Both the position numbers and the translations under genes were made by a program. Under the pieces are notes generated by a model that searched no databases, had not been told where the DNA came from, and worked only from the letters and a program-made list of their open reading frames with translations. A stretch of 32,000 bases of DNA from Coprobacillaceae bacterium (GTDB lineage: Bacteria; Bacillota_I; Bacilli_A; Erysipelotrichales; Coprobacillaceae): NCBI GenBank assembly GCA_963675915.1, contig OY780959.1, positions 870,001 to 902,000 on the forward strand. The letters are read 5' to 3'. Shown one piece after another: positions 5,100 to 28,449 of the stretch (position 1 is the first letter of the stretch; the number at the start of each line of letters is the position of its first letter).

Positions 5100-5312
5100 A
5101 ACAAAAAAACGCCCTTGAATAAGGACGTAATAAACGCGGTACCACCTTAATTCGTGCCAATTGGCACGCTCTCTTTGTCTTAACGCGACTAACGTTTACT
5201 TCTACTTATTTCAAAGTAACTCTTCACGAGTGTCCCATAGTTTCCAAATCAATATTCTCACCAGCCATATTGTCTCTGCAATTTATTCACTATTTAATCC
5301 CGATCATTAGAT
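5100..5312 (-). promoter_or_regulatory. T-box leader (tRNA-sensing riboswitch) of the hisS-aspS operon, with an intrinsic terminator
   Basis: The minus strand reads AATTAAGGTGGTACCGCG (5152-5135), the conserved T-box sequence. This is followed by the hairpin CGUCCUU-AUUC-AAGGGCG (5127-5110) and a U7 tract (5109-5103). Upstream are an AGAGA motif and a candidate specifier region GGGACACUCG (GACAC at 5234-5230). Confidence 0.8.
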
Positions 5313-5319
5313 TAAGTTC

Positions 5320-6662: not shown

Positions 6663-7154
6663 CTATGATGACTTGATGTCTTTTTTTTCAAACAGACGCG
6701 GCATATAGGATATTAGAATCATCAGCGCAACCAGTGAAGCCAGAGCGATTTTTCCCTCGAAACTGACTACATAGACTGCCACATATCCCAGATATGGAAT
6801 TGTGAACATCGGCACCCCGACAATGTTGTTGAAGGCAACCGGTTTGAAATCCGGTGTATTGTTTGCATCACCTTTAGTGGTATAAAGCATATTTTCTTCA
6901 TCTATTTCAATCACTCGGTGAGTCACTAGAGTGTTGGCATTCATATAGAATGTAATCGAATCGTTCACTTCAATCTTGTCGAAATCCTCATCTACGAAAA
7001 TCAGACTTCCAACATGATATGTGGGTTCCATGCTGCCCGAAAGGACAACATAAGGAGTCACGCCAAACAATCTTGGAACATACATCATTGCCATAAAAGC
7101 AATGATGATAACTATTACAGTATTTGTTGCTATATTGATAACTTTACCAGTCAT
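6663..7154 (-). CDS. sipW: Signal peptidase I, archaeal/ER (SipW) type
   Basis: 163 aa with an N-terminal TM segment, VLSGSMEPT (catalytic Ser), THRV (His in place of the Lys of P-type SPases), TKGDAN and a C-terminal TM segment, as in Bacillus subtilis SipW. Its start overlaps the upstream stop (TAATG). Confidence 0.85.
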   Translation of the reverse strand: MTGKVINIATNTVIVIIIAFMAMMYVPRLFGVTPYVVLSGSMEPTYHVGSLIFVDEDFDKIEVNDSITFYMNANTLVTHRVIEIDEENMLYTTKGDANNTPDFKPVAFNNIVGVPMFTIPYLGYVAVYVVSFEGKIALASLVALMILISYMPRLFEKKDIKSS

Positions 7155-8038
7155 TACTCTTGGTCTCTTCTTTTCTTACCAAAGAATAAGAATCTAATCA
7201 AAATTGCCAGCAACAATAATGAGAAAAATCCAACTACTGCGATAGTGCTTGTATTCCAGAAACCGCCTGATGTAGGGACATCGTCATCGTCGATATCGAT
7301 ATCATCGTCATCATCAACGTCAGTTCCATCGTCATCATCAACATCAGTTCCATCATCACCTGTACCGTCATCGGTTGTCGGCACATCATCATCATCGATA
7401 TCTGTACCGGTATCTCCTTGGTCAGGTTCGACTACAGTAATTCCAGTTCCGGTACCCGGATTGATAATAACTGTGGTTCCATCACCTGCGGTATCGTCAG
7501 CGTCACCACCACCGCCACCTCCACCGATAAGGGTGTAGATGAAAGTGATTTGAACTCCGTCTTGGTCGATAGTTGCCGATTTAGCTGCGGCATCAACAGC
7601 ATAGTTTTCAATCTCTTCTGCAATCACACTGACCAAGGCTCCTTTTTCAGTAACCTTTACCAGTGGGGTTGCCAATTGATTTCCTTCTTCATCAAGGTAG
7701 TTTACCTGATATGTGACTTGATCGATAATTAATCGATACTGCGCCACGAATGTCTCTTCACGGGTGACTTCATCTGGAAGTTCCGGAGAATATCCAGTGA
7801 AGTAGTACCCTTCTTCAGGCATTACCAATGCATTAAGCAAATCTTTTTGAGTTTCATCAAAGACATCGCCGTAATCATAAACTGCGATCAGCTCATCATC
7901 ATCAAGGATCATTCCATGACTTCCGGCTTTAAGGATAATGTTATAACTGCGTAACGCATCGACTGGGGTAAAAGCCATAAACATCATTACCAGTGCACTG
8001 AGCATTACGAACAATGATTTACTTTTCACTTTTACCAC
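7154..8038 (-). CDS. Surface adhesin-like protein: signal peptide, Listeria-Bacteroides-repeat-like and MucBP-like domains, Gly6 and poly-Asp stalk, LPXTG-like C-terminal anchor
   Basis: The signal peptide reads KSKSLFVMLSALVMMFMAFTPVDA. PEEGYYFTGYSPELP...FVAQY is tentatively a Flg_new-like repeat, and YQVNYLDEEGNQLATP...ITFIYT is tentatively MucBP-like. The stalk reads GGGGGGDADD...DVDDDDGTDVDDDDDIDIDDDD. The C-terminus is VPTSGG, a hydrophobic segment, then GKKRRDQE. The start is GTG at 8038 or 8029. Confidence 0.7.
   Translation of the reverse strand: MVKVKSKSLFVMLSALVMMFMAFTPVDALRSYNIILKAGSHGMILDDDELIAVYDYGDVFDETQKDLLNALVMPEEGYYFTGYSPELPDEVTREETFVAQYRLIIDQVTYQVNYLDEEGNQLATPLVKVTEKGALVSVIAEEIENYAVDAAAKSATIDQDGVQITFIYTLIGGGGGGGDADDTAGDGTTVIINPGTGTGITVVEPDQGDTGTDIDDDDVPTTDDGTGDDGTDVDDDDGTDVDDDDDIDIDDDDVPTSGGFWNTSTIAVVGFFSLLLLAILIRFLFFGKKRRDQE
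7303..7357 (-). repeat. 24-bp tandem repeat (about 2.3 copies) inside the acidic stalk coding region
   Basis: Units 7303-7326 and 7327-7350 differ at one base. On the minus strand they encode GTDVDDDD GTDVDDDD. Confidence 0.8.
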
Positions 8039-8651
8039 CCTTTCTAATTAAGATGAGTACTGCAGCCGCCCCGACAATCAAACCACCGTAGATAATCGGT
8101 GAAATCGAGTTGTCGCCAGTTGGCGGAGTATAAGGAATAACTTCCTCAACCGAGAAGACTATTGCAATCTCTCCGGTTTGACCTTGATAATCGTTGTTTG
8201 CGGAATCACCATCAAGGTAAATATTGATATTGACTGTCATTGTTTCACCCGGCATCAAAGCACCAAGCAAGATATTGTTTTCAACTACCAGGAATTCAGA
8301 TCCGATAGTAACTTCATTGTTACCGATAATCGCCTGGAAGATATCTTCGCTGCCATCATCGATTGTGAATTCATAAACAGCAGTTCCATCTCCTTTTTCA
8401 GCGATATTATCAAGAATTTCACTGGCTACATAGAAACGCATTTCATTGTCACTGTCATTTACCAGATCAAATGTTGCAGTTCTGGTTTCACCAGGGAACA
8501 TAGTTGTAAAATCAATTGCCCCACCTTCAAGAGAAATGAAATCACCAGCTTCTCCAAGATAGGTAATCGTATCCGCTGCGGCTACATTGCCAATTGACAT
8601 AAAACATATCAGACAGATGGCTAATCCAAAAATTAATTTTTTCATTTTCAT
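8019..8651 (-). CDS. Secreted beta-sandwich protein, tentatively TasA/camelysin-like, with a C-terminal sorting-signal-like anchor
   Basis: The signal peptide ends in NVAAA. The PGE strand motif occurs twice (MFPGETRTATFDLVND and LMPGETMTVNINIY), and NNDYQGQTGEIAIVFSVEE resembles the camelysin/TasA C-terminal motif. The C-terminus is TPPTGDNS, a TM segment (IIYGGLIVGAAAVLILI), then RKGGKSEK. Confidence 0.55.
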   Translation of the reverse strand: MKMKKLIFGLAICLICFMSIGNVAAADTITYLGEAGDFISLEGGAIDFTTMFPGETRTATFDLVNDSDNEMRFYVASEILDNIAEKGDGTAVYEFTIDDGSEDIFQAIIGNNEVTIGSEFLVVENNILLGALMPGETMTVNINIYLDGDSANNDYQGQTGEIAIVFSVEEVIPYTPPTGDNSISPIIYGGLIVGAAAVLILIRKGGKSEK

Positions 8652-8659
8652 CCCTCTTT

Positions 8660-9280
8660 CTATAACTCTACTGAAACAATATTATCATCGTCAAATGTTG
8701 CAACTACGCCCCATTCAGCCAACAAGGCATCTTGACCAGCAAATGTTTGCACCGCATCAGCGTAGAATTCCAAATGAGCGATTGTATTGGCATATAAGTT
8801 ATGATTTTCATCAGTATCCAGATATGAATACTCTTCCAAGATCAAAGCTGATTCGCCAGGTTTTAACGGTTTGGTGTAGTAAGCATAGGTAACTTCGCCA
8901 TATTCATCACCAGGCAAAACAATCCAACCATCTTCGATGGTAAACTTGATTTCTTCAGGGTCGAGGTAATTATCAGGATCATCAGGTGTTGTCATGCTTT
9001 TGTTGTCTTGAGCGTCAGCCCAGTAACGATAAATAGTCACTCTGACATATGCATCATAATCTTCGGTGTTTTCAATCGCCACACTTTTGTCAACAACCTC
9101 ACCAGGTACAGCCACTCCATCATGGGTGCCGGTAACATTCAAATTGATGCCAATAGCGGCAGTTGTAACATCCTTAGTGGTTTGAAAACTGCTTTCGATC
9201 ACACCGTAAGTTCCACGAATACCAAAACCAACCCCAATCAATAAACATAATATTAATCCCATTGTTATTTTCTTCTTCAT
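8660..9280 (-). CDS. TasA/BsaA-like secreted protein, paralogue A
   Basis: MKKKITMGLILCLLIGVGFGIRGTYGV, then VPGEVVDKSVAIENTEDYDAYVRV and YADAVQTFAG. The other paralogues share the motifs PG[DE]xxxK...AY[VI]R and A.A[IV]Q. I preferred the ATG at 9280 (RBS AGGTGA) over the track GTG at 9289. Confidence 0.6.
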   Translation of the reverse strand: MKKKITMGLILCLLIGVGFGIRGTYGVIESSFQTTKDVTTAAIGINLNVTGTHDGVAVPGEVVDKSVAIENTEDYDAYVRVTIYRYWADAQDNKSMTTPDDPDNYLDPEEIKFTIEDGWIVLPGDEYGEVTYAYYTKPLKPGESALILEEYSYLDTDENHNLYANTIAHLEFYADAVQTFAGQDALLAEWGVVATFDDDNIVSVEL

Positions 9281-9304
9281 ATTTCTCACCTCTATATCAC
9301 TTGT

Positions 9305-9337
9305 ATTTTAACTTTATCCAGTCACATAGTAGTCACA
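9305..9337 (-). promoter_or_regulatory. Activator-type promoter P_A (direct hexamer repeats plus a -10 box, no -35 box)
   Basis: Minus strand: TGTGAC-tacta-TGTGAC-tggataaagt-TAAAAT. The geometry is the same as at 15636-15668, 15749-15781 and 28450-28482. Confidence 0.6.
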
Positions 9338-9425: not shown

Positions 9426-10349
9426 ATGATGAAAAAATGGTTACTAGTGTTACTTGCTTTGACACTTACAGGATGTAATGGCGCCATGGCGGCCGAAGAT
9501 GTCAGTCCAATCCAAGCGGATGACCCAATCGAATATCTCGACAATACCCCGGTATTGCATCTTACCAGTTTTGATGAAGCCAAAACCGAAGGTAATGATT
9601 TGGTCCGTCTGGATCTTAGTCATACCAGTGAAGGTTACATCGGTGTTCATTATCTGGGCGACAATATCAAACCTAAAACCCAGATAACCTTGCCCGATGG
9701 GACGGTCTACACTTACAATCTGACTGGGAACATCGATTATTTCAACCTACCCGAACCAAGTGGTGAATATACGGTCTCCATCTATGAAAATACGACTGGA
9801 ACCAAGTATTCAAAACTGTACAAAACCACCTTCGATGTTGAACAAATCAACGATCATATCGCATTTTTATATAATAACCAATTCATCAATTTCAATGAAG
9901 ATACCCTGGCAGTCGCTAAATCCAGCAAGGTTGTGGCAACGGCCACCAGTGAACTTGACAAAATCCAGTTGATCTTCAATTATGTGGTTTCCCATCTAGA
10001 CTACGACCATGATCTGGCCAAGACGGTAACTTACGGTTATATCCCCGACCTGGACGACGTGCTCGAAAGCCAAACAGGTATCTGTTTTGATTATGCGGCT
10101 TTGATGGCCAGTATGCTAAGAACCCAGAATATCGCCACCAAAATGGAATTTGGCTATGTCAATGAAGTCTATCACGCCTGGATCAGTGTTTACACTGACG
10201 AAACCGGATGGATCAATAATTTCATCCACTTCGAAAACGACACCTGGCAAATGATGGATCCGACTTTCGTCTCCCAAAATCCCAACAGTTCCAAAGTAAA
10301 AGAGTTCACTACCAATACCAGCAACTATCAAATCAAGTACATCTACTAA
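9426..10349 (+). CDS. Transglutaminase-core (Cys-His-Asp) lipoprotein
   Basis: Lipobox LTLTGC in the signal peptide. Transglutaminase-like core: QTGICFDYAALMASMLR (Cys), YHAWISVY (His), MMDPTF (Asp). Confidence 0.85.
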   Translation: MMKKWLLVLLALTLTGCNGAMAAEDVSPIQADDPIEYLDNTPVLHLTSFDEAKTEGNDLVRLDLSHTSEGYIGVHYLGDNIKPKTQITLPDGTVYTYNLTGNIDYFNLPEPSGEYTVSIYENTTGTKYSKLYKTTFDVEQINDHIAFLYNNQFINFNEDTLAVAKSSKVVATATSELDKIQLIFNYVVSHLDYDHDLAKTVTYGYIPDLDDVLESQTGICFDYAALMASMLRTQNIATKMEFGYVNEVYHAWISVYTDETGWINNFIHFENDTWQMMDPTFVSQNPNSSKVKEFTTNTSNYQIKYIY

Positions 10350-10362
10350 AGAAGGTGATCAT

Positions 10363-11298
10363 ATGAAAAATCAAGACTATGATTTAATAATCAGTTTTTC
10401 CAAACAACTTTATCTGATCACTTCCACCGGCGAGGACATCACCGGTGCTTTGAACATTCTCCTCGATTCCTGCGATGATGCCAAAATGAAAGAATTGATC
10501 AGCTCAATCACCGGAGCCCTGGACTCGACGACGTTGACCGATGCCTTGAAAAATACCGGTTTCTTCGATGACCATTATCTAAGTGTCGTTGATATCGGTC
10601 TAGTCTCAGGTAACCTCGACAGCATCTTCTTATATCTTAGCGACTATTACCAAAACGAAAAAGACAACCAGAACTTGCTTTTTAAAACGCTTAGCTATCC
10701 TTTGACAGTCACTGCCGTGATGGTTGGAGTTCTAGTGATCCTGGCAACTCGGGTTTTGCCGATCTTCAATTCAATTTATCAGTCAATCGGCTCAGAGTTG
10801 TCGGGAATTGGTAAATACACTTTGTACTTTGGCTACTTTATCAATGATTATTTCATCTATATCCTGGCAATCGTAGCGATTGCCTTTATCATCATCTTGG
10901 TCTTGATGCGCCTTGGCAAATTGGACTTTTTCAAGTCTATCCGCCTGGAGCAGCAAACCGCCAATGAGCTCTATGCCCTTTATAACCTGCTAAGAGCCGG
11001 AATAATTCTCGACGAGGCAGTCCGACTGACCTTCGGCAGCCCGGTGGAATTGGATCAGGTCATGGCTAAGCGGTTGACTCCATTGGAATTGCAATTGATC
11101 AACGTAGCGAGCACCACTGGTAACTTCGACCAGGTCCTGGAAATCCTGCACCAGGAATATGCCCGCAAGACCAGCACCAAAATCGATAATATCGTCACTA
11201 CATTTGAAATGAGCTTTATCGGCGGATTCACGGTGATCGTGGCAATCATCCTTTTGTCGATAATCCTGCCGTTGTTTACGATTTTGATCAATCTATGA
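10363..11298 (+). CDS. PilC/GspF/ComGB-like platform protein (T2SS-F family, short form)
   Basis: 311 aa with two degenerate T2SSF-like repeats (SFSKQLYLITSTGEDITGAL...VVDIGLVSGNLD and ELYALYNLLRAGIILDEAV...INVASTTGNFDQVL) and three predicted TM segments. RBS AAGGTGA. Confidence 0.75.
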   Translation: MKNQDYDLIISFSKQLYLITSTGEDITGALNILLDSCDDAKMKELISSITGALDSTTLTDALKNTGFFDDHYLSVVDIGLVSGNLDSIFLYLSDYYQNEKDNQNLLFKTLSYPLTVTAVMVGVLVILATRVLPIFNSIYQSIGSELSGIGKYTLYFGYFINDYFIYILAIVAIAFIIILVLMRLGKLDFFKSIRLEQQTANELYALYNLLRAGIILDEAVRLTFGSPVELDQVMAKRLTPLELQLINVASTTGNFDQVLEILHQEYARKTSTKIDNIVTTFEMSFIGGFTVIVAIILLSIILPLFTILINL

Positions 11299-11579
11299 AA
11301 TATCTAAAACTAGCGGCTTTGATCTGCATTCTTGCCACAGCCCTGTATGCGTTCGACCGCTTCGCCGGATTTGAAAAACGGACTTCGATTGACAATCTCG
11401 AACAGACCATCGATTACAAAATTATCCAATGTTATATCAATGAAGGCCGGTATCCCGGGTCCCTTGAATATCTTCAAGAAAACTATCAGCTGGATTTCGA
11501 CAACCAAAAATTTCAGGTTTATCTGATTCCCTTGGGGGGAAATCTCAAACCGGATGTGACGGTGATTGAATATGAATAA
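11295..11579 (+). CDS. ComGC/GspG-like pilin-like protein lacking a prepilin cleavage motif
   Basis: N-terminal hydrophobic helix MKYLKLAALICILATALYAF with no G/FTLxE motif. IIQCYINEGRYPGSLEYLQENY resembles the 'G.YP.sL..L' motif of pseudopilin globular domains. ATGA start/stop overlap with the platform gene. Confidence 0.5.
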   Translation: MKYLKLAALICILATALYAFDRFAGFEKRTSIDNLEQTIDYKIIQCYINEGRYPGSLEYLQENYQLDFDNQKFQVYLIPLGGNLKPDVTVIEYE

Positions 11580-12003
11580 GAAAAATTTACTTATCTTTGC
11601 GATTACAAGTATTTTTGTCGGGGCAGCCTTGATGGTGGCATTGTTGATTGTCAACAACTACCAGACCACCTTAACCACCAATCAGGACATTATCAACAAC
11701 CAATTGGCCTTGTCATTCATCAATGAAAACACCAAACGCTACGATACGGTTGAAGTTATCAAGAACCCGGAAGCCAGTGTGCTAAAACTTGATGATGGCA
11801 GTGGCTATTCCACCTACCTTTACACAATCGAAGAGTATCTTTATGAAGCTTATCTGGCTGACACCATGGCGTTCGAACCTGATTACGGCAACCAGGTTAT
11901 TGCCAGCAATCCAATCGATTTTGCAATCGAGAACGACATGTTGATTGTGACTGACAGCCTGACTTCGAATTTCATTTTGATCGATCTTGGAGGTAAATTA
12001 TGA
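11572..12003 (+). CDS. Pilin-like or minor-pilin-like membrane-anchored protein
   Basis: MNKKNLLIFAITSIFVGAALMVALLIV is a single N-terminal TM segment. I preferred the ATG at 11572 behind GGTGA over the track TTG at 11566. It overlaps the upstream stop by 8 nt. Confidence 0.45.
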   Translation: MNKKNLLIFAITSIFVGAALMVALLIVNNYQTTLTTNQDIINNQLALSFINENTKRYDTVEVIKNPEASVLKLDDGSGYSTYLYTIEEYLYEAYLADTMAFEPDYGNQVIASNPIDFAIENDMLIVTDSLTSNFILIDLGGKL

Positions 12004-12365
12004 GACGAGAATTTTCACTTATAGAACTTACCATCAATATTTTCATCTTCATCATCGTCATCGCCGTGGTCTTGCAACTGCTTATTGCCACTAACGAGAT
12101 CAATACCACCAACGAGATTGATGCCAAATCGACTTTGCAGCTAATCAACATCACCAGTATTCTCGATAATCCTGACATCGAGTTGGACGACTACTATACC
12201 CTCGACAATGACAAAATCTACTTCGATGAATTTAACCGAAATGTGACCCACGATAAAATGCTTTATTACATCGAGATTATTTCCGAAAACAAAAGTTACA
12301 CATTGGGCATTTATGACAAATATGACAATGTAGTTGATTTATTAGACTATGAGGTGGTATTATGA
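12000..12365 (+). CDS. Minor-pilin-like protein with a degenerate class III (prepilin) signal
   Basis: MRRE-FSLIELTINIFIFIIV has Phe+1 and Glu+5 as in type IV prepilins, but Glu replaces Gly at position -1. RBS GGAGGT. ATGA overlap with the upstream gene. Confidence 0.55.
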   Translation: MRREFSLIELTINIFIFIIVIAVVLQLLIATNEINTTNEIDAKSTLQLINITSILDNPDIELDDYYTLDNDKIYFDEFNRNVTHDKMLYYIEIISENKSYTLGIYDKYDNVVDLLDYEVVL

Positions 12366-12748
12366 GAATAAGACCAGGACTGATCAGTCTGTTCAATATC
12401 TTCATTGTTTTGATTCTTATTATCCTCAGTCTGATTGGATACACCAATAGCCTCAACGCTCAAGAGATTATCCTCAACAACAAAGAACATAATCTTACCT
12501 ATCTTCAAGCTAAAAGCCTGGCTAACGGGTTCATCAATAATCTGGAAACTTCCGGACTCGAAGAACTCGAAAATGAATATCAGTTCGACATCGATGGCTT
12601 TGTCATTACTTATGATATCGAACTTGATTATCAACAATATCTGCGTCTGGTCTACAATTACCAGACTCATGAGATTCTTCGTGAGACTCTGATCAATGAA
12701 TCGGACTATCAGGTTGATGACACGATACCAGTTTTCAAAGGAGAGTAA
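12362..12748 (+). CDS. ComGG-like minor-pilin-like protein
   Basis: MRIRPG-LISLFNIFIVLILIIL has Gly at -1 but no Glu+5, as in ComGG/GspK-type minor pilins. LTYLQAKSLANGF resembles the ComGG helix. RBS GAGGTGG. ATGA overlap with the upstream gene. Confidence 0.5.
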   Translation: MRIRPGLISLFNIFIVLILIILSLIGYTNSLNAQEIILNNKEHNLTYLQAKSLANGFINNLETSGLEELENEYQFDIDGFVITYDIELDYQQYLRLVYNYQTHEILRETLINESDYQVDDTIPVFKGE

Positions 12749-12749
12749 T

Positions 12750-13820
12750 ATGGATAACAACAATATGAACATAGCAGCCCTGCTTCAAGAAGCAATCCGG
12801 AAAAATGCTTCGGATATTTTTATCGAAGCCAATACGCCGGTAAAATTCAAACGCGACAAGGTATTATACGAACTGAACAATCAAAAGCTCAATATTCGTG
12901 ACACCCGCGAATTGATCACTCAAATCTACAAACATTCAAACCGCAGCATGGATACTCTGCTGAAAAACGGCGATGACGACTTCGCCTTTTCAATCAACAA
13001 TTTATCCCGCTTCAGGGTCAGCATGTTTTTGCAACGAGGTTCTCTGGCTTGTGTAATTCGAATCATTGCCTTCACCCTGCCTGATTTTTCCCAGCTGCAT
13101 ATTCCCAAGGAAGTTATTGAACTTGGTGATTATTCAAAAGGATTGATCCTTTTCACCGGTCCTTCAGGTTCCGGTAAATCTACCACTTTGGCTTGCATTA
13201 TCGATTATATAAATCATAATTTCGCCAAACATATCATCACCCTTGAGGATCCAATCGAGTATCTGCATTCCCATGACAAGTCGATCATCTCCCAACGGGA
13301 AGTGGGAACCGACACCAAATCATACATCAAGGGGCTGCGTGCTTCTTTGCGGCAATCGCCAGATGTCATCTTGCTTGGTGAAATGCGTGACCAGGAAACT
13401 GTGGAAGTGGCGATTACCGCCAGCGAAACCGGCCATCTAGTGTTGTCAACCCTTCATACCATTGGAGCGAGCAACAGTATAAACCGGATCATCGATTCCT
13501 TCCCGGCCAGCGAGCAACAACAGATTGCTTTCCAATTGTCATTATCTCTGACTGCAGTCGTTTCTCAACACTTGATTCCAAGTATCGAAGGAAATTTGAT
13601 TCCAGTATTTGAAATCATGGTTGTCAATCCAGCCATCGCCAATTTGATCAGGGAACGCAAGATTCATCAAATTGATACGATTGTTTCTTGGAGTACCGAG
13701 GACAATATGGTTACCCTCGACAAGGGCCTGATCAACCTTTACAATGATGAAAAGATTACTCGAGAAACAGTCTTGAAATACTGCAACAATCCCAAATTTG
13801 TCGAAAGCAAAATCAAATAA
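12750..13820 (+). CDS. pilT: PilT-family (twitching/retraction-type) hexameric ATPase
   Basis: Walker A GPSGSGKSTT, Asp box ITLEDPIEY, Walker B DVILLGEMRD and His box GHLVLSTLHT. The PilT-type motifs FPASEQQQIAFQLS and PAIANLIRERKIHQI (AIRNLIRE-like) are present. I chose the ATG at 12750 behind AAAGGAGAG, two nt after the upstream stop. Confidence 0.9.
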   Translation: MDNNNMNIAALLQEAIRKNASDIFIEANTPVKFKRDKVLYELNNQKLNIRDTRELITQIYKHSNRSMDTLLKNGDDDFAFSINNLSRFRVSMFLQRGSLACVIRIIAFTLPDFSQLHIPKEVIELGDYSKGLILFTGPSGSGKSTTLACIIDYINHNFAKHIITLEDPIEYLHSHDKSIISQREVGTDTKSYIKGLRASLRQSPDVILLGEMRDQETVEVAITASETGHLVLSTLHTIGASNSINRIIDSFPASEQQQIAFQLSLSLTAVVSQHLIPSIEGNLIPVFEIMVVNPAIANLIRERKIHQIDTIVSWSTEDNMVTLDKGLINLYNDEKITRETVLKYCNNPKFVESKIK

Positions 13821-14035: not shown

Positions 14036-14794
14036 TTATTCATATGATAAGATTTGAACACTATCCCAATCATCAATTCTAGGTGGAGTCCCACCGTCAT
14101 TATCAGGTGTAAAGTTATCTGCTTGGATAGCTTCAGCTGTCATAACGATTGAATATTCATCGTCAATATTGTAATTATTTAAGTCCATTCCAGGGAATGT
14201 TACAGTGGTAAACAATGTAACGTCTTCTGTTGCGCTTAAGATTGCATCTGAGGATTCAGCATCGCCAGCATCATAGTATGCAGTAACTTCTAATGTTTTA
14301 ACTACTGGATCATCAGGAGCTGCCGGTGCAGTTTCAACAGTTCCAATAACTAGATTCCATTCATTTACTTCGTCGATATTCAACCAAGATAGAACATCAT
14401 CAGGTTCAACATCGAGTGCAGTATTCATATCATTATCACCATTTACATCAGTAACAGTGATCAACATTTGAATTCGAACGTATGCATCTTGTGAATCTGT
14501 TTCAACAGTCACGACAGGTTCTTTTGAATAGACATCACCTGGCATAACATCAGTAAATGATAACCCGGTAAACACTTCATCAGGTTCTTCACCAGTAGTA
14601 GTTTCTTCACCGGCTAAAACACCTTCACTGGCTGCTGAAGTTTCAGTAAAAGAAATGTCGACATGACCAAAAGTTACGGTATTGGTCAAATCACCTTCAG
14701 TATCGGTAAAGTAAGCTAATGTGAATCCTGTCGCTGCACTAAGAGCCAATGCGATAGCCGCCACGCCAGCAACAACTTTTTTGTTAAATTTCAT
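14036..14794 (-). CDS. TasA/BsaA-like secreted protein, paralogue B, with a SipW-cognate-type signal peptide
   Basis: The N-terminus MKFNKKVVAGVAAIALALSAATGFTLAYFTDTEG resembles Bacillus TasA/CalY N-termini (GGGTFAYFSD). Also VMPGDVYSKEPVVTVETDSQDAYVRI and TAEAIQADN. RBS GGAGGA. Confidence 0.7.
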   Translation of the reverse strand: MKFNKKVVAGVAAIALALSAATGFTLAYFTDTEGDLTNTVTFGHVDISFTETSAASEGVLAGEETTTGEEPDEVFTGLSFTDVMPGDVYSKEPVVTVETDSQDAYVRIQMLITVTDVNGDNDMNTALDVEPDDVLSWLNIDEVNEWNLVIGTVETAPAAPDDPVVKTLEVTAYYDAGDAESSDAILSATEDVTLFTTVTFPGMDLNNYNIDDEYSIVMTAEAIQADNFTPDNDGGTPPRIDDWDSVQILSYE

Positions 14795-14875
14795 TTTTCT
14801 TTCCTCCTATAAATTTTCTTGTAATATGGTTTTTGTATTTTGAGAGTACAAGCCCTGTTGTCATTGTTAAGGAAT

Positions 14876-15604
14876 CTATTCTCCATAATCTGCGAAGCTG
14901 ATCAATTCAGCGGTATGATTATCAACATTGGCTGCTTGAATCGCATAGGCTTTGACATCGATTCTAAGATTAGGATAATATCCATCTTCGTCAGGTACAA
15001 TACCAGTTCCGACAGTGTTATTGAATCCCACTTGCATTTGAGCAAATAATGCTGTAGTCATATAATCAGTGTCAGTCAAGGCATTATTGTACACGAAGAA
15101 ATCACCTAGTTGATCATCAAGCGGTACGATTATATCCGAATTATCTGTCCAGTTAACCAGATCATAGTCTAGAGGAGTAGCCAGATAAGCTTCAAAATCT
15201 GTTCTGGTCATTTCCACTTCATCTACCGAATAGATCAACTCAAGAGCCACATAACAATCAGCACTGGCTGCTGTTTTGGCAATTGTCGGATCTTTTGGAA
15301 TCATATCACCTGGCAAATAAGCATGAGCTAAATCAAAACCCAAATCAGCTTCACCAATATAAGCTGGATTGGTTGATAAACCATGGTTCCAACCATCGAT
15401 TTCTGGGGAATCCAGATTGTCGTCAGGATCAGTAAATGCATATCCATCCCAAGTTTCTTCCCGCAAAAGAATTTCAACTCCAGAAGAAGCAGTAAATACA
15501 TTCGTAATTGGCCCTTCAGAGTCAGTCAAAAACGCATAAGACAGAGACAATGAGAAACCAAAAACAAGCAATGCCGCCATAAAGAACATTAAGATTTTCT
15601 TCAT
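14876..15604 (-). CDS. TasA/BsaA-like secreted protein, paralogue C
   Basis: MKKILMFFMAALLVFGFSLSLSYAFLTDSEG, YLPGDMIPKDPTIAKTAASADCYVAL and VKAYAIQAAN. It lies 81 nt upstream of paralogue B on the same strand. Confidence 0.65.
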   Translation of the reverse strand: MKKILMFFMAALLVFGFSLSLSYAFLTDSEGPITNVFTASSGVEILLREETWDGYAFTDPDDNLDSPEIDGWNHGLSTNPAYIGEADLGFDLAHAYLPGDMIPKDPTIAKTAASADCYVALELIYSVDEVEMTRTDFEAYLATPLDYDLVNWTDNSDIIVPLDDQLGDFFVYNNALTDTDYMTTALFAQMQVGFNNTVGTGIVPDEDGYYPNLRIDVKAYAIQAANVDNHTAELISFADYGE

Positions 15605-15810: not shown

Positions 15811-15842
15811 TAAACAAAAAAATCGGGAATCAATCGATTCCC
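15811..15842 (-). terminator. Intrinsic terminator of the regulator gene
   Basis: Minus strand: GGGAATC-GATT-GATTCCC followed by a GAUUUUUUU tract. The stem overlaps the stop codon. A second small hairpin, accgga-tatt-tccggt, lies at 15795-15810. Confidence 0.6.
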
Positions 15843-17032
15843 AATTTTCGTGTCGTACAGGTTATGTAAATATCCTTTTTCTTCAAATTGCGGTAAAACA
15901 GTTTTTCAATCCGGCTGATTACGATTTTACTGTCATCCAACGAGCACATGCTTAAAAGACAACTGTACTGGTTAGGCGACACTTGAGAAATCGAATCGCA
16001 GCTGCGCAGATAGTTCTCAAGAACATTTTCCAGATATCCCATCCCGCCATTGACAATTTCCCGGTATTTCGGTGAATCGCAATCAACTGCCTTCATCATC
16101 TTGACTGTCACCAGCATCAAACTGGATTCAATTCCGCTTCTATTCGACAACCTTACTCCCAGATTGCATAAATTCTTAAATGCCCCATATTCGCATACCA
16201 ACGCATGTCCGACTTCCTTGGGAATGATATCGAATGTTACATTATCGATATTTTCACTTTCAGGCAGCAGCTGGCTTAAAACTTCCTCATATGTCCGCAT
16301 CAGTTCATTACTGGGAAGCACCCCTAATTCATGGTTTAAAATATATTTAGCAGTTTCATATTTCACTTTTGCGAGTTCAAATTCGCGATTTTCCCCCAAC
16401 GCCAGAATTTCATAACGATAGAAGTCTTCCTCGGTATGGTCAAGCGTCAAAGCATTATTGCTGTAAAAATAAAGATCATCAAATAACTGTTCATTGTACA
16501 GTACTTGCAAAAAATCTTTGGTCATTTTCAAGAAGACATTGTGATAATACAATGAATTCTGCATAATCAAAGAATCATAATCAAAATGAGCAAACAGACG
16601 TTCCCGATAAATCTCGGTAGCCTTTTTATAATGCTCGATTTTGATTGGTGTTGGCATATTCTCATTGATTCTAGTGATGGTATCATAAAAAATTTCAAAA
16701 TCAATAATCAGTTTGACATTGGAATTCCAATAATAAGTTCCCGAGCCGGTCATGATCAGTTCGGCATCAGGCCAAACTTTTTTCATTACCGTCCTGAGTC
16801 GGTAAACCAGATTTTTCAAAGCTCCAATCGGATTGGAACTTTCGTTGTTCTCCCAAAGATAGTCGCATAAATCCGATGAAGAGATGATGCTGTTATGATG
16901 ACTTACAAAATAATAAAGGAGTTTTGTAAGTCTTTTTGATTTCAACATCGATAAATTTAGTTCACCTTGCTCATTGCTGATCTTAAACTCACCAAAAGAA
17001 TACACGTTCAATACACAAGTATATTCCATCAT
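15830..17032 (-). CDS. SARP-like regulator: OmpR-type winged helix, BTAD-like helical domain and a degenerate GGDEF-like C-terminal domain
   Basis: FGEFKI...SKRLTKLLYYFVSHHNSIISSSDLCDYLWENNESSNPIGALKNLVYRLR is Trans_reg_C-like. HYKKATEIYRERLF...KYETAKYILNHELGVLPSNELMRTYEEV is BTAD-like. The C-terminus LMLVTVKMMKAVDCD...LENYLRSCDSISQVSPNQYSCLL aligns by eye with the GGDEF-domain pattern DxD..FK..ND...LR..D...R.GGDEF..LL, with SPNQY in place of GGDEF. Confidence 0.65.
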   Translation of the reverse strand: MMEYTCVLNVYSFGEFKISNEQGELNLSMLKSKRLTKLLYYFVSHHNSIISSSDLCDYLWENNESSNPIGALKNLVYRLRTVMKKVWPDAELIMTGSGTYYWNSNVKLIIDFEIFYDTITRINENMPTPIKIEHYKKATEIYRERLFAHFDYDSLIMQNSLYYHNVFLKMTKDFLQVLYNEQLFDDLYFYSNNALTLDHTEEDFYRYEILALGENREFELAKVKYETAKYILNHELGVLPSNELMRTYEEVLSQLLPESENIDNVTFDIIPKEVGHALVCEYGAFKNLCNLGVRLSNRSGIESSLMLVTVKMMKAVDCDSPKYREIVNGGMGYLENVLENYLRSCDSISQVSPNQYSCLLSMCSLDDSKIVISRIEKLFYRNLKKKDIYITCTTRKLGID

Positions 17033-25047: not shown

Positions 25048-25620
25048 TTATGGTGTCAATGTGACTCCCCAGATATCGAGGATATCTGCACCAATGCTAT
25101 TTACTTGTCGAGATGCAATTCCTTCAGCCAAAACTGAGACTTCCAGAACATCATCGCCAGGTTTATCCATATTGATGACTAGTTGCCCAGTCATATCTTC
25201 TGGATCCACCGGTAATGCATAGTAATAATAACCACCAATTTCTTGCCAATTTCCATCGCTTGCACCGACATTAAATTCAATATAGGCACTGCCGTCAATT
25301 GGTTTGACATAGCCACCTTCATCTTGAACTGTTGCTACTACCGCAACGCGGATATAAGCAGCAGTCAGATTCAAATCAGGATCATTGGTTTCATTGCTGT
25401 TGGCGATAGTAAACACCTTTTGTGCAGTAGTTTCGGTTTCATAAAAATCCCCACCGCTGGTTTCATAATAGGTACCATCTTCAACAACTTGAACATCGAC
25501 GTATGATGGATTGAATTCATTGATTGCATAGTCTTCGTCGGTAAAGAATGCGAATGTATAGGCAACGGAAAGTCCAATTATAACAAGAAGAACAGATAAT
25601 CTAAGAAATAATTTTTTCAT
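25048..25620 (-). CDS. TasA/BsaA-like secreted protein, paralogue D
   Basis: MKKLFLRLSVLLVIIGLSVAYTFAFFTDEDY is a SipW-cognate-type N-terminus. Also TAAYIRVAVV and VLAEGIASRQ. RBS AGGAGGGTGA. It lies 18 nt downstream of the VWA gene. Confidence 0.6.
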   Translation of the reverse strand: MKKLFLRLSVLLVIIGLSVAYTFAFFTDEDYAINEFNPSYVDVQVVEDGTYYETSGGDFYETETTAQKVFTIANSNETNDPDLNLTAAYIRVAVVATVQDEGGYVKPIDGSAYIEFNVGASDGNWQEIGGYYYYALPVDPEDMTGQLVINMDKPGDDVLEVSVLAEGIASRQVNSIGADILDIWGVTLTP

Positions 25621-25638
25621 TTTATCTTCACCCTCCTA

Positions 25639-28395
25639 TCAATCTAACCCAATGACATGGTTTCTTGCGACAGCCACATCACCGATCCATGGATATTGTG
25701 TCAATGTTTTGGTTGTGAAATCAAATTGATGAACATCATCAGTAACCTCATCATCAACCAATCCAGTACCATTTTGATCGTACCAGTTATTTACATAGTA
25801 GAAGACTGCATCTCCATTAGTACCGTCGCGGCCTACGAAGAATTGAGTAGTTGCCGGTGAATCAGGAGTATATTTATCTGCCCAATCATCAACTTCAGTC
25901 ACTCGATAGAAGCCTTCTTCAAGATACTTGATTGTTTTAGCATCTTGAGCATTATCCAATGTTACGTAGAATGTTCTTACTTTAGCACCAACAGGATCAT
26001 CAATATTTTCACCTTCGAATTGTTCAATCATGAATTTGAATCCTTGATTAGATTCGATTGGATCCAAACTTGAATATTCAGTGCTTGTTTTGTAAATTGT
26101 GAATTCACCATCTACGATAGTCAGATAGAATTCATTCAAATCACTTGGAATATCCTCATTATGGTAAGCAGCCCTCGATGTGATATCCACATCAGTTGGC
26201 AAGTCAGCCATAACTTTGGCATGGCCAAGAATCGGTGATCCGATTACATCGTAGTCACCATCAAATGGAACCCAGCTGTCATCTACAGGTGTTATTAACA
26301 AGTCAGGCATTCCAGTTGCAGCTGCCAATGGAGTTGTTCCATCACAGCCAATATAGTCAGCATCAGCAATCGGTGGCCAGTATACACTATCCACGAAGTC
26401 TTCATATTCAGGAACTTCACCGAGGAAGTTGATTGAATTTTGAAGATTGATTGTCGAATCAATAACTATAATTTCAGGATAAATATCGAATGTCAACGGA
26501 TTAGGTGTAATCGTACCTGAATATATAGGAGTTACGGTCACCCTTACAGTTACCGTTTTGGTATCTAACAATTGGGTAAATCCACTAACAGAACCATCGA
26601 TTGTGGTTGTGCCAGCATCAATAGTCAATGTTCCCAGGTGAGTGCCGCCTCCATCAGGGTCACCATCATAGAATGCATATGAAACATCAACATAGTCATT
26701 GCGGTGCCCACCTAATGTATAATCATCTGGAACTGGATAATAGAATCCTTCTCCTGGATCATTTTGACTGTAGTTTACCACACCAGCGACGATATCCGCC
26801 AATACTTCAATGCCACAGGCACCGTTGGTAATATAGACTTTCTTATCAACAGGAGTTACTACATATTGAAGTGGTACATCAATTGTCGGCACTTCGAATC
26901 TGTTGATTGGATATGAAGAGTCAGAATCAAGATAGAATCCACTGTTAGTTTCGTTGGTTTCTACCATATTACCTCCGATGAATCCAGGAATCAAATCTGT
27001 TGTAATCACGATAATCAGTTTCATACCATGATCAATTTCTTCATAATCTGTGTAACACAGATTTTCTGAATAATCAAAGCCAGAAACATAGACTCCATTG
27101 TTAGTTCCATCTACTACCAAAGTTACATCACCCGGATCCAATTCGGTATAAGTTGGATTAAATGTATATTCTTCAGTCGGAAGTCCTTCATCGAATATTC
27201 CAGTAAATGCCGAAGTGTATACTCTTACACTGTCGCCATCGGTGCTGGCATTTGCCAGGCCAATGTCCGATACTTCCGGAGTCATAATAACTTCAGTCAA
27301 ATAATCTCTAACCTGTGTGGTAACACCATAATCAGGTCCTTCGATATTTTCTTGAATGATAGTTTCGAATGCCGCAATCAATTCATCATCGAAATTTTCA
27401 TTACTAAATACGTATGCGTATTGGTCATATGGGGTTGTGTTGGTAGTCGCATCATAATTAGATGAAATAACCTCCGCGAATTCCCATCTTGAAATATTTT
27501 TTCCATCTCCATAAGGATCAGGGAAATTAGCATTGGAATAAACATCCGGGCCATCCAATGTCATTGCATAAATCTTGTTGTCAGTAGCTTCAACACTTTT
27601 CACAAATTGTGAATTGTCGTAGGTTTGTTTGAATTTGTTGGTTGAGTCCTTGAATTCAGAACTACTTTGACCAGGCAAACCATCAGTGTATAAGATTGTA
27701 ATGCTGTCTTCACCAATTACATTTGGATTTTCGACAATTTGCAATACTGCATTTAGACCTTTATCAGCTCTGGAAACTCCATAGTCATCAATAGCAAGAT
27801 TGTTGACGATGTCATAAGCAGCATCAGCTTCTTCTCCCTGCCCTAAAGCAAAAAATAAGTTTTTGGTCACGTAACTGTTAGAATATTGGGCATTACTGTC
27901 GTACATTACGCTGTAATTATTGTAACCATCATAATAAAGATTAGGTTCCGCTGATAAATTGATATAGTCCTTATAATAAAGACCAGTTACATTATTGTCA
28001 GAGAATTGAGTGAACGCTACATTCACTGAAATATTGTTAAGCATAATGTAATCAAGAATATAGATAACACTATTCTTCAAAACTTGGAATCTTGTCAAAT
28101 CATCACTAGGATCTAGCGGATCAGCTCCGGTCCCCGGTACTGTTTCCTCCATACTTGGTGACGTATCTAAACAAAAAATAATGTCTGGTAGTTCCGCATA
28201 GCTTGTATACTCTGCGGTAGCATATGTTTCTAATGTTATTTCCACTTTCCCATTATCCAAGAAATCTGCCGTTTTATACAGCACAACACTTGGGTCCATA
28301 TCACCTTCGACTGCTGTTACAGTACTAAAGGCGGTAAATGTTGCCAGAACCATGGCTATTGCTACTAAAAAACTTAGTATTTTTTTATACTTCAT
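25639..28395 (-). CDS. Large secreted von Willebrand factor A domain protein with CnaB/SpaA-like C-terminal module(s)
   Basis: 918 aa with a signal peptide. MIDAS motif: FCLDTSPSM (DxSxS) together with ILYTDGLPG. The C-terminal IKYLEEGFYRVTEVDDWADKYTP resembles the 'L.pG.Y.v.E...P.GY' strand of prealbumin-like pilin/adhesin domains. There is no LPXTG motif or TM segment at the C-terminus. Confidence 0.8.
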   Translation of the reverse strand: MKYKKILSFLVAIAMVLATFTAFSTVTAVEGDMDPSVVLYKTADFLDNGKVEITLETYATAEYTSYAELPDIIFCLDTSPSMEETVPGTGADPLDPSDDLTRFQVLKNSVIYILDYIMLNNISVNVAFTQFSDNNVTGLYYKDYINLSAEPNLYYDGYNNYSVMYDSNAQYSNSYVTKNLFFALGQGEEADAAYDIVNNLAIDDYGVSRADKGLNAVLQIVENPNVIGEDSITILYTDGLPGQSSSEFKDSTNKFKQTYDNSQFVKSVEATDNKIYAMTLDGPDVYSNANFPDPYGDGKNISRWEFAEVISSNYDATTNTTPYDQYAYVFSNENFDDELIAAFETIIQENIEGPDYGVTTQVRDYLTEVIMTPEVSDIGLANASTDGDSVRVYTSAFTGIFDEGLPTEEYTFNPTYTELDPGDVTLVVDGTNNGVYVSGFDYSENLCYTDYEEIDHGMKLIIVITTDLIPGFIGGNMVETNETNSGFYLDSDSSYPINRFEVPTIDVPLQYVVTPVDKKVYITNGACGIEVLADIVAGVVNYSQNDPGEGFYYPVPDDYTLGGHRNDYVDVSYAFYDGDPDGGGTHLGTLTIDAGTTTIDGSVSGFTQLLDTKTVTVRVTVTPIYSGTITPNPLTFDIYPEIIVIDSTINLQNSINFLGEVPEYEDFVDSVYWPPIADADYIGCDGTTPLAAATGMPDLLITPVDDSWVPFDGDYDVIGSPILGHAKVMADLPTDVDITSRAAYHNEDIPSDLNEFYLTIVDGEFTIYKTSTEYSSLDPIESNQGFKFMIEQFEGENIDDPVGAKVRTFYVTLDNAQDAKTIKYLEEGFYRVTEVDDWADKYTPDSPATTQFFVGRDGTNGDAVFYYVNNWYDQNGTGLVDDEVTDDVHQFDFTTKTLTQYPWIGDVAVARNHVIGLD

Positions 28396-28449
28396 ATATC
28401 ATCACCTCTTCAAGTTATATAGAAACATATATATTCTTACTTCATAAAC

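Follow-up and report, generated by a model that had tools for sequence, protein, structure and literature searches.

Tandem TGTGAC repeats in place of a -35 element upstream of TasA-like and VWA operons in gut Firmicutes, and an adjacent SARP-like regulator with a degenerate GGDEF domain that probably reads them

Introduction

Transcriptional activators of the SARP family (AfsR, ActII-ORF4, DnrI, RedD) consist of an OmpR-type winged helix followed by a BTAD domain. Published SARP sites are direct repeats situated about 8 nt upstream of the -10 box and overlapping the -35 region, and in the complex formed by AfsR two DNA-binding domains are neighbours on a single DNA face, take the place of sigma region 4 at -35 and touch RNA polymerase (PMC11301090). 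Here we describe four promoters of closely related layout in a stretch of 32,000 nt from a Coprobacillaceae bacterium (Erysipelotrichales; assembly GCA_963675915.1, contig OY780959.1, positions 870,001-902,000 of the forward strand), referred to hereafter as the window, together with an adjacent gene for a SARP-like protein ending in a degenerate GGDEF domain, which is probably their regulator. An earlier note on this DNA had pointed out the four promoters, upstream of operons for TasA-like and VWA-domain proteins, and had proposed them as a regulon.

The likeness to SARPs concerns both the protein and its predicted sites. The order of winged helix and BTAD is common to both, and so is the site layout, in which a pair of direct repeats with a period of one helical turn lies over or replaces the -35 region, the downstream repeat being about 8-10 bp away from the -10 box. 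Classical SARPs are found in actinomycetes, where they control secondary-metabolite clusters, whereas the present protein occurs in Firmicutes among operons for secreted fibres and adhesins; large SARPs carry NOD and TPR domains at the C-terminus, whereas this regulator carries a degenerate GGDEF domain; and the repeats recognized by SARPs are heptamers of the TCGAGXX type, whereas those described here read TGTGACY. PhoB likewise binds head to tail to 7-bp repeats with 4-bp spacers, an arrangement also seen in the window, and the pho box takes the place of a -35 element at a distance of 10 bp from the -10 box, the same spacing as in the sites described here. The core of the Escherichia coli pho box, CTGTCAT (PMC4415409), resembles TGTGACY. 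In contrast to response regulators of the OmpR/PhoB type, the regulator has no receiver domain, contains a BTAD and begins with its DNA-binding domain, and is therefore not controlled by phosphorylation of a receiver aspartate.

With regard to cargo, the operons resemble Clostridium perfringens sipW-bsaABC and Bacillus subtilis tapA-sipW-tasA, in which a SipW-type signal peptidase likewise accompanies TasA/BsaA-like fibre proteins, those of the window being putative members of that class. The Bacillus matrix operon is under the control of SinR, AbrB and RemA. The likeness to C. perfringens includes a VWA protein (BsaC) and a type IV pilus-like secretion system nearby, and BsaC needs this apparatus for its secretion (PMC7395162, PMC11580942). 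Regulation in C. perfringens is through the two-component system BsaRS, whereas in the window it would be exerted by a one-component SARP-GGDEF protein acting at an operator of its own.

The regulation of surface fibres, adhesins and matrix is almost unknown in gut Lachnospiraceae, Oscillospiraceae and Erysipelotrichales, most of which are hard to manipulate genetically. While the type of mechanism considered here, SARP- or pho-box-like activation at direct repeats replacing the -35 element, is established, the subfamily, its operator, the domain fusion, the hosts and the regulon appear to be new. A search of full-text literature, with most subscription journals outside its reach, returned no description of a BTAD-GGDEF regulator, of the motif or of the regulon.

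Results and discussion

Four promoters with a common geometry

The four sites lie on the minus strand, and the strings reported for them previously were reproduced base for base (Table 1). Each is composed of two TGTKAC hexamers separated by 5 bp, giving an 11-bp period, followed after a further 10 bp by a -10 box. This geometry holds throughout, with a single mismatch in the proximal repeat of site 3 (TATTAC), the weakest of the four. The absence of -35 boxes also stood: a scan of the window with the sigma-70 consensus (at least four of six matches in the -35 hexamer, spacer of 16-18 nt) paired no -35 hexamer with any of the four -10 boxes. If transcription starts 7 nt after the -10 box, the repeats span approximately -39 to -23.

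Each site is located 24-144 nt 5' of the coding start of an operon for secreted proteins, in agreement with the earlier assignment of all four to TasA-like or VWA operons. The -10 box of site 1 is 24 nt from the ATG at 9280, with a predicted transcription start near 9298. Sites 2 and 3 stand in tandem before one gene with its ATG at 15604, site 2 being the upstream promoter (144 nt from the -10 box, directly past the terminator of the regulator gene) and site 3 the proximal one (31 nt); the four sites hence correspond to three operons. Site 4 is the predicted promoter of the VWA operon, 54 nt from the gene start. The sites would act as independent promoters, because the relA, regulator and pfk transcripts upstream of them each end in a terminator-like hairpin.

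Pairs matching TGTKAC-N5-TGTKAC with at most one mismatch occur five times in the 32 kb (0.46 expected), and none of 100 dinucleotide-preserving shuffles of the window reached that number. The observation of four sites is correct and far above chance. The fifth pair (20011-19995, minus strand; TATTAC-gccac-TGTTAC, one mismatch) was rejected as a chance occurrence; it lies within the apt open reading frame (ORF), has no -10 box and is kept in a syntenic relative (L001, see below) only as coding sequence. A position weight matrix (PWM) covering the three hexamers, trained on sites of other genomes that had been chosen by the TGTKAC pattern of the earlier note, gave scores of 29.8, 26.4, 22.6 and 32.5 bits for sites 1-4, and no score above 10.6 bits in the rest of the window; windows simulated with a Markov model yielded 0.04 matches of 15 bits or more. 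The scan of the window found no further site before the housekeeping genes, the regulator gene or the plus-strand pilus-like operon, confirming what had been said of the first and the last of these.

The TasA-like genes are paralogous, and duplication of one promoter segment within the genome is therefore conceivable as the origin of the similarity. Spacers and flanks are nevertheless unrelated among the four sites, the counts are far over those in shuffled sequence and the same motif with the same spacing recurs as far away as the Oscillospiraceae, so that chance and duplication are effectively refuted and their probability is negligible.

Conservation in close relatives

Three syntenic loci (L001-L003), encoding regulators 89, 73 and 70% identical to that of the window, were compared with it, and two loci with VWA proteins 52-53% identical to the window's (L004, L005) were added for site 4. 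Among the syntenic genomes no change was seen in the repeats and -10 boxes of sites 1, 2 and 4; the N10 spacer and the upstream flanks vary, and the encoded proteins of the footprinted genomes are 70-89% (regulators) and 52-61% (VWA proteins) identical. Site 1 is unchanged in L001, L002 and L003 in its repeats, -10 box and 5' untranslated region (5' UTR), with a diverged upstream flank. Site 2 is conserved in all three, and site 3 survives in L003 but has decayed in L002 and is missing from L001. At site 4 the 17-bp repeat block and the -10 box are identical in L004 and L005. The footprint of this site rests on these two loci: the VWA promoter of L001-L003 lies about 1.5 kb past the 10-kb flank, the VWA orthologues of L001-L003 were not among the returns of the VWA homology search, and two further loci (L006, L007) begin too near the gene to include the site. 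The pairing of the VWA gene with the gene for a 190-aa protein is kept in L001, L004 and L005. Regulator identity is 70% in a metagenome-assembled genome (MAG) of the Coprobacillaceae and 71% in an Erysipelotrichaceae MAG.

These comparisons bear on the idea that the hexamers are elements of an alternative sigma factor, TGTGAC serving as an unusual -35 box. The hexamer does contain the TGAC of TTGACA, and the consensus scan joins the proximal repeat of site 2, read as GTGACA, to a GATAGT at a distance of 18 nt downstream. The two copies are however exactly 11 bp apart and lie 10 and 21 bp from a canonical TATAAT, neither spacing being suitable for a -35 element, and the GATAGT of site 2 is not conserved in L001, for which reason this alternative promoter was rejected. 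The genes found downstream of the motif in distant loci (below) include one for an ECF sigma factor, which has the position of a target and not of a conserved partner. We consider a reading by an alternative sigma factor very unlikely.

The 5' UTRs after sites 1 and 4 (9281-9304, minus strand, ACAAGTGATATAGAGGTGAGAAAT; 28396-28449, minus strand, TGAAGTAAGA…TATGTTTCTATA.AACTT.AAGAGGTGAT) are nearly invariant across genomes. They persist across strong divergence of the upstream flanks and even of the proteins encoded, and more than a ribosome-binding site may be behind this. In L003 a gene for a group II intron reverse transcriptase (L003:11678-13072) is located between the regulator and TasA-like genes, and the repeat sites remain on its far side.

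A SARP-like regulator with a degenerate GGDEF domain

The only transcription factor encoded in the cluster of the window is the SARP-like regulator. Its N-terminal part matched Trans_reg_C, the OmpR-type winged helix, with 29.3 bits (Pfam cut-off 26.2), and BTAD directly after the DNA-binding domain with 31.5 bits (cut-off 22.1); both domains were matched by all 26 members of the family. No match to Response_reg was obtained with Pfam in the regulator or in the family members, and the winged helix begins near residue 31. A profile of the 26 members aligned with the SARP domain of AfsR (8hvr_I, E 8.6e-11, positions 34-253), EmbR also being matched. The AlphaFold model of the regulator (pLDDT 89.4) had as its best match in the PDB AfsR in the Streptomyces transcription initiation complex (8k60, 8hvr; 8k60_J, E 6.9e-11; TM-score for 8k60 of 0.71-0.73 normalised to the target), followed by EmbR (E 6e-9) and then by GGDEF structures. 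The product that the earlier note had put forward as the candidate (there 15830-17032) is thus indeed of the SARP-like OmpR fold.

The C-terminal portion of about 140 residues matched GGDEF domains (4urg, E 2.9e-8), and PF00990 was matched by 20 of the 26 family members. In place of the catalytic GG(D/E)EF motif there is S-x-x-Q-(Y/F), which in the window protein reads SPNQY. The RxxD of the inhibitory site (I-site) is nearly invariant among 78 more distant regulators described below (arginine in 78, aspartate in 77), and a distal arginine 28 residues after it is found in 74 of them, with lysine in the other four; from counting and an alignment of GGDEF domains we take this residue to be equivalent to R390 of PleD. 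By these signatures the regulator is a small SARP fused to a predicted catalytically dead GGDEF domain that has an intact inhibitory-site signature. In the same 78 proteins, whose overall identity is only about 25-30%, the recognition helix ALKNLVYR is identical without exception, matching the invariance of TGTGAC.

Association of the motif with the regulator in distant loci

A scan of one genome per species identified 195 relatives of the regulator, from which 80 loci were taken in. Seventy-eight of these are more distant from the window, with regulators 25-35% identical, and belong to Erysipelotrichaceae, Coprobacillaceae, Lachnospiraceae, Oscillospiraceae and other Clostridia; they were chosen solely because they encode a homologue of the regulator. 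Cultured organisms with the system include Longicatena caecimuris DSM 29481, Longibaculum muris DSM 29487, Thomasclavelia spiroformis, Sharpea porci and Agathobacter. They contained 93 repeat pairs with at most one mismatch, 54 of them exact (about 0.7 expected at uniform composition), and 82 of the 93 are on the strand of the regulator. The -10 box was outside the search pattern, and TAnnnT was nonetheless found exactly 10 bp past the proximal hexamer in 62 of the 93 pairs, the next-best offset accounting for 11; the consensus of these boxes is TATAAT. No -35-like consensus was found at a fitting distance among the 93 pairs. With a PWM built from 12 sites of the window's own clade, there were 78 matches of at least 20 bits in the distant loci and none in Markov shuffles, and 46 of the 78 loci had at least one such match. 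A site lies within 800 bp after the stop codon of the regulator gene, like site 2 here, in 25 of the 78 loci, and within 400 bp before its start codon in six. The latter arrangement would imply autoregulation in some lineages, though not in this window. Among the regulator loci, 42 lacked a strict composite match; no hexamer repeated at 11 bp together with TAnnnT at 10 bp recurred in them, and in several a TGTGAC pair is followed by AATAAT, CATAAT or GATAGT in the -10 position.

The first complete ORF downstream was classified for 53 sites. Ten encode SipW-dependent matrix proteins of the BsaA family and eight encode proteins with SipW-type signal peptides; others encode large surface proteins with VWA, SpaA or Cna_B domains, stand-alone GGDEF-like proteins, the regulator itself (two cases) and the ECF sigma factor mentioned above. 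The same classes of gene thus follow the motif as in the window, and the proposal of a regulon, which the earlier note had based on four promoters, is borne out for the loci of other species; the regulon would accordingly be a family-wide one, extending beyond this single genome.

Direct repeats with an 11-bp period are general for regulators of the OmpR family, and C. perfringens sipW-bsaA is activated by BsaRS (PMC7395162). Another winged-helix protein, for instance a response regulator of the OmpR/PhoB type such as BsaR, or PhoP, might hence bind the repeats, the SARP-like gene being a mere neighbour, and the choice of loci by regulator cannot formally separate it from other genes of the cluster. 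The cluster in the window, however, encodes no response regulator or other transcription factor, and the motif tracks the SARP-GGDEF gene, in the positions just given, across families that have little else in common. The regulator is also recovered when the search is made by the motif alone (below), and its recognition helix is as invariant as the motif. A binder other than the SARP-GGDEF protein therefore seems quite improbable. Interpretations of TGTGAC as a site for Spo0A, PhoP or a CRP-like protein were considered and set aside, the invariant positions and the direct-repeat orientation being unlike their consensus.

The remaining class of downstream genes, 11 of the 53, encodes a family of proteins of about 57-67 aa with the motif …F-I-I-x-I-K-D-T-Q-N-x-T-W-Q-G…F-R-S-x-L-E-L-I-K-L-I-D-S-A…, for which no match was found in Pfam or NCBIfam. 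Their gene adjoins that of the regulator in about 30 of the 78 distant loci, usually behind a TGTGAC-repeat promoter of its own. It is absent from the window, where no remnant was found, and from its close relatives; as the motif persists in this lineage, the small protein cannot be what reads it here. AfsR activates the small-protein gene afsS (PMC4415409). The adjoining regulator and small-protein genes recall this pair, the likeness being one of arrangement in the distant loci, as the small gene is missing from the lineage of the window.

Three Lachnospiraceae loci (L059, L076 and L078; Eubacterium sp. CAG:252, Eubacterium sp. CAG:248 and Lachnospira sp.) have a repeat site with a -10 box inside the region matching the regulator, at about position 10385 (plus strand), some 385 nt from where the match begins. 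The ORF that comes next in L076 (104 aa) weakly matches GGDEF. These could be split regulators or internal promoters. In Marasmitruncus massiliensis and a related Oscillospiraceae MAG (L042:11314-11346 and L048:11317-11344, plus strand), three TGTGAC-like units in a row with 11-bp spacing, followed by GATAGT, are placed after the regulator.

Search by the motif alone

Metagenome contigs were searched for the exact string TGTGAC-N5-TGTGAC-N10-TATAAT, which returned at least 120 stretches, and 80 loci were fetched, many of them from human gut. Although only a few kb were available for each, an ORF of the regulator family was present in 16 of the 80, on the same strand as the motif in 15, and in four loci the motif stands about 120 nt before the regulator start. 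The ORFs downstream of the motif comprised 16 TasA-like proteins, about 19 large secreted proteins and four regulators. About 22 of the 80 sites had no nearby ORF and may be chance occurrences. The search by motif recovers the regulator, and the direction of the result is clear.

Proposed mechanism

We propose that these are sigma-A promoters and that they probably require the SARP-GGDEF protein encoded next to them, whose tandem binding would stand in for recognition of a -35 box. The housekeeping sigma factor would use a good -10 box that has no -35 partner. The operator would be the direct-repeat pair TGTGACY-N4-TGTGACY, whose units are offset by one helical turn; 10 bp separate the end of the proximal hexamer from the -10 box. 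Two winged-helix domains of the regulator would sit on the repeats in head-to-tail order, along the same face of the helix and with their centre near -31; there they would substitute for the contact of sigma region 4 with the -35 element and recruit RNA polymerase as AfsR does. Three operons would in this way be switched on together: that for the SipW peptidase and putative TasA/BsaA-like fibre proteins, that for a second TasA-like pair, and that for the VWA protein and a putative TasA-like partner.

Several points weigh against this proposal. No site meeting 20 bits was found within 10 kb in 32 of the 78 distant regulator loci, and the regulator's own promoter in the window has none. As the loci were picked by the regulator, anything co-inherited with the gene cluster would also look enriched in them. 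The metagenome set is redundant, a few abundant gut species recurring in it, and its counts have no chance rate for the collection. The PWM ranking of the window sites is partly circular owing to the pattern-picked training sites and was discounted as independent proof, while the null rate is not circular. What the analysis shows is the geometry of the sites, its conservation, the fold of the regulator and its association with the motif, whereas binding, activation, transcription starts and the ligand are inferred.

The sign of regulation likewise has to be weighed, as a site over the -35 region is compatible with repression. In that case the repeats would be true operators at which the regulator holds the -35 region until a signal releases it; the sites do overlap the position expected for sigma region 4, and the sequence data do not give the sign. 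However, with no usable -35 element and no consistent extended -10 these promoters should be weak unaided, the SARPs characterised with such a geometry are all activators (PMC11301090, PMC10972967), and BTAD is a family of activation domains. Repression is in our judgement unlikely. Under the activation model, the SARP-GGDEF protein and its sites would constitute a conserved on-switch for biofilm-matrix genes in gut bacteria that has apparently not been described.

A possible nucleotide signal

The GGDEF-like domain is most likely a module for signal input or dimerisation. Receptors for cyclic di-GMP (c-di-GMP) with a degenerate GGDEF domain, such as PopA, PelD and similar proteins, have in common with the regulator the GGDEF fold, the loss of the active-site motif and the retention of the I-site; none of them is known to be fused to a SARP DNA-binding module. 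By this analogy, retention of the I-site in a domain predicted to be catalytically dead hints at sensing of c-di-GMP. Alternatively, the domain may function in dimerisation alone, or bind another ligand. Control of matrix and adhesins by c-di-GMP would be biologically sensible, and it is conceivable, although less likely than not, that the protein is a one-component nucleotide-gated SARP in which c-di-GMP or a related nucleotide at the I-site licenses tandem DNA binding; TasA/BsaA-type fibres and VWA adhesins would thereby be switched on in gut Clostridia and Erysipelotrichia alike, with the co-encoded protein of about 60 aa as a further partner in most lineages. If true, the protein would belong to a new class of transcription factors responding to c-di-GMP, and no master switch for matrix fibres would have been defined in these commensals before it. 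A riboswitch input was rejected, as an Rfam scan gave no c-di-GMP riboswitch in the window or in the 5' UTRs of the targets.

The 33-bp promoter-operator signature together with the regulator family would allow a matrix and adhesin regulon to be read from genomes and metagenomes, and would extend SARP-type activation well outside the antibiotic clusters of actinomycetes. The pair may also offer a portable, probably signal-dependent promoter and activator for engineering these bacteria, and a testable route for control of colonisation traits by a nucleotide second messenger.

Target operons and neighbouring genes

The coordinates of the sites, the regulator, the predicted target operons and examples of the small-protein gene are compiled in Table 1.

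Table 1. Location of the repeat sites, the regulator gene, the predicted target operons and the small-protein genes (coordinates are those of the window, except where a locus is given)
Feature	Coordinates	Strand	Description
Site 1	9337-9305	minus	TGTGAC-tacta-TGTGAC-tggataaagt-TAAAAT
Site 1, parts	9337-9332; 9326-9321; 9310-9305	minus	distal TGTGAC; proximal TGTGAC; -10 box TAAAAT
Site 2	15781-15749	minus	TGTTAC-cttga-TGTGAC-aggatatttc-TACAAT
Site 2, parts	15781-15776; 15770-15765; 15754-15749	minus	TGTTAC; TGTGAC; -10 box TACAAT
Site 3	15668-15636	minus	TGTGAC-ctagg-TATTAC-cgctgtttgt-TATTAT
Site 3, parts	15668-15663; 15657-15652; 15641-15636	minus	TGTGAC; TATTAC; -10 box TATTAT, with TG in front of the -10 box
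Site 4	28482-28450	minus	TGTGAC-tgtta-TGTTAC-cttgcttaaa-TATAAT
Site 4, parts	28482-28477; 28471-28466; 28455-28450	minus	TGTGAC; TGTTAC; -10 box TATAAT
Regulator gene	15830-17029	minus	399 aa; winged helix ~31-97, BTAD ~131-251, degenerate GGDEF ~258-399
Terminator-like hairpin	15818-15849	minus	intrinsic-terminator-like hairpin and T run; overlaps the regulator stop codon and sets site 2 apart from the regulator transcript
Operon 1 (target of site 1)	6663-9280	minus	three secreted proteins and SipW-type signal peptidase
Operon 1, gene 1	8660-9280	minus	weakly BsaA-like secreted protein (TIGR04090, E 1.2e-4, far below cut-off)
Operon 1, gene 2	8019-8651	minus	secreted protein; no family match
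Operon 1, gene 3	7154-8038	minus	MucBP domain, acidic tract, C-terminal hydrophobic (membrane-anchor-like) tail
Operon 1, gene 4	6663-7154	minus	SipW-type signal peptidase (TIGR02228, 111.9 bits, cut-off 51.85)
Operon 2 (target of sites 2 and 3)	14036-15604	minus	two paralogous secreted proteins with predicted SipW-type signal peptides
Operon 2, gene 1	14876-15604	minus	tied to the TasA-like family by paralogy alone (E 2e-6)
Operon 2, gene 2	14036-14794	minus	camelysin/TasA (PF12389, 23.6 bits, cut-off 22.5; TIGR04088, 20.9 bits, cut-off 19)
Operon 3 (target of site 4)	25048-28395	minus	VWA gene and gene for 190-aa protein
Operon 3, gene 1	25639-28395	minus	918-aa secreted protein with VWA domain
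Operon 3, gene 2	25048-25620	minus	190 aa; N-terminus SipW-type-signal-like by eye, resembling the signals of operon 2
Small-protein gene (~57-67 aa), examples	L011:11661-11849; L021:11635-11817; L052:11633-11815; L041:9777-9947		also in ~25 other loci

The MucBP-domain protein of operon 1 also has a glycine run, and its acidic tract is long, rich in Asp, Thr and Gly and of low complexity; judged by these features it looks like a surface-anchored adhesin. For the 190-aa protein of operon 3, no family model gave a match, and its BLASTP matches were restricted to the signal-peptide region (E 3e-4 and 0.05).

An operon resembling pilus or type II secretion systems (9426-13820, plus strand) is located between the two TasA-like operons. 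It encodes a transglutaminase-like protein, whose N-terminus is hydrophobic, contains Cys and looks by eye like that of a lipoprotein, together with a T2SSF platform protein, a T2SSE ATPase and four small ORFs with a hydrophobic N-terminus that are pilin-like by eye, including a DUF4860 protein. Its promoter region contains a conserved TTGTATAAT (extended -10), and the repeat motif is absent from it. By analogy with the proposal for C. perfringens BsaC (PMC11580942), the operon may be an export apparatus for the VWA or TasA-like proteins.

The sole Rfam family reaching its gathering score in the window was the T-box leader upstream of hisS (5118-5316, minus strand; 131 bits). In L002 an insertion sequence (DDE_Tnp_1; L002:2999-4585) is found beside a nitroreductase gene, downstream of htpG.

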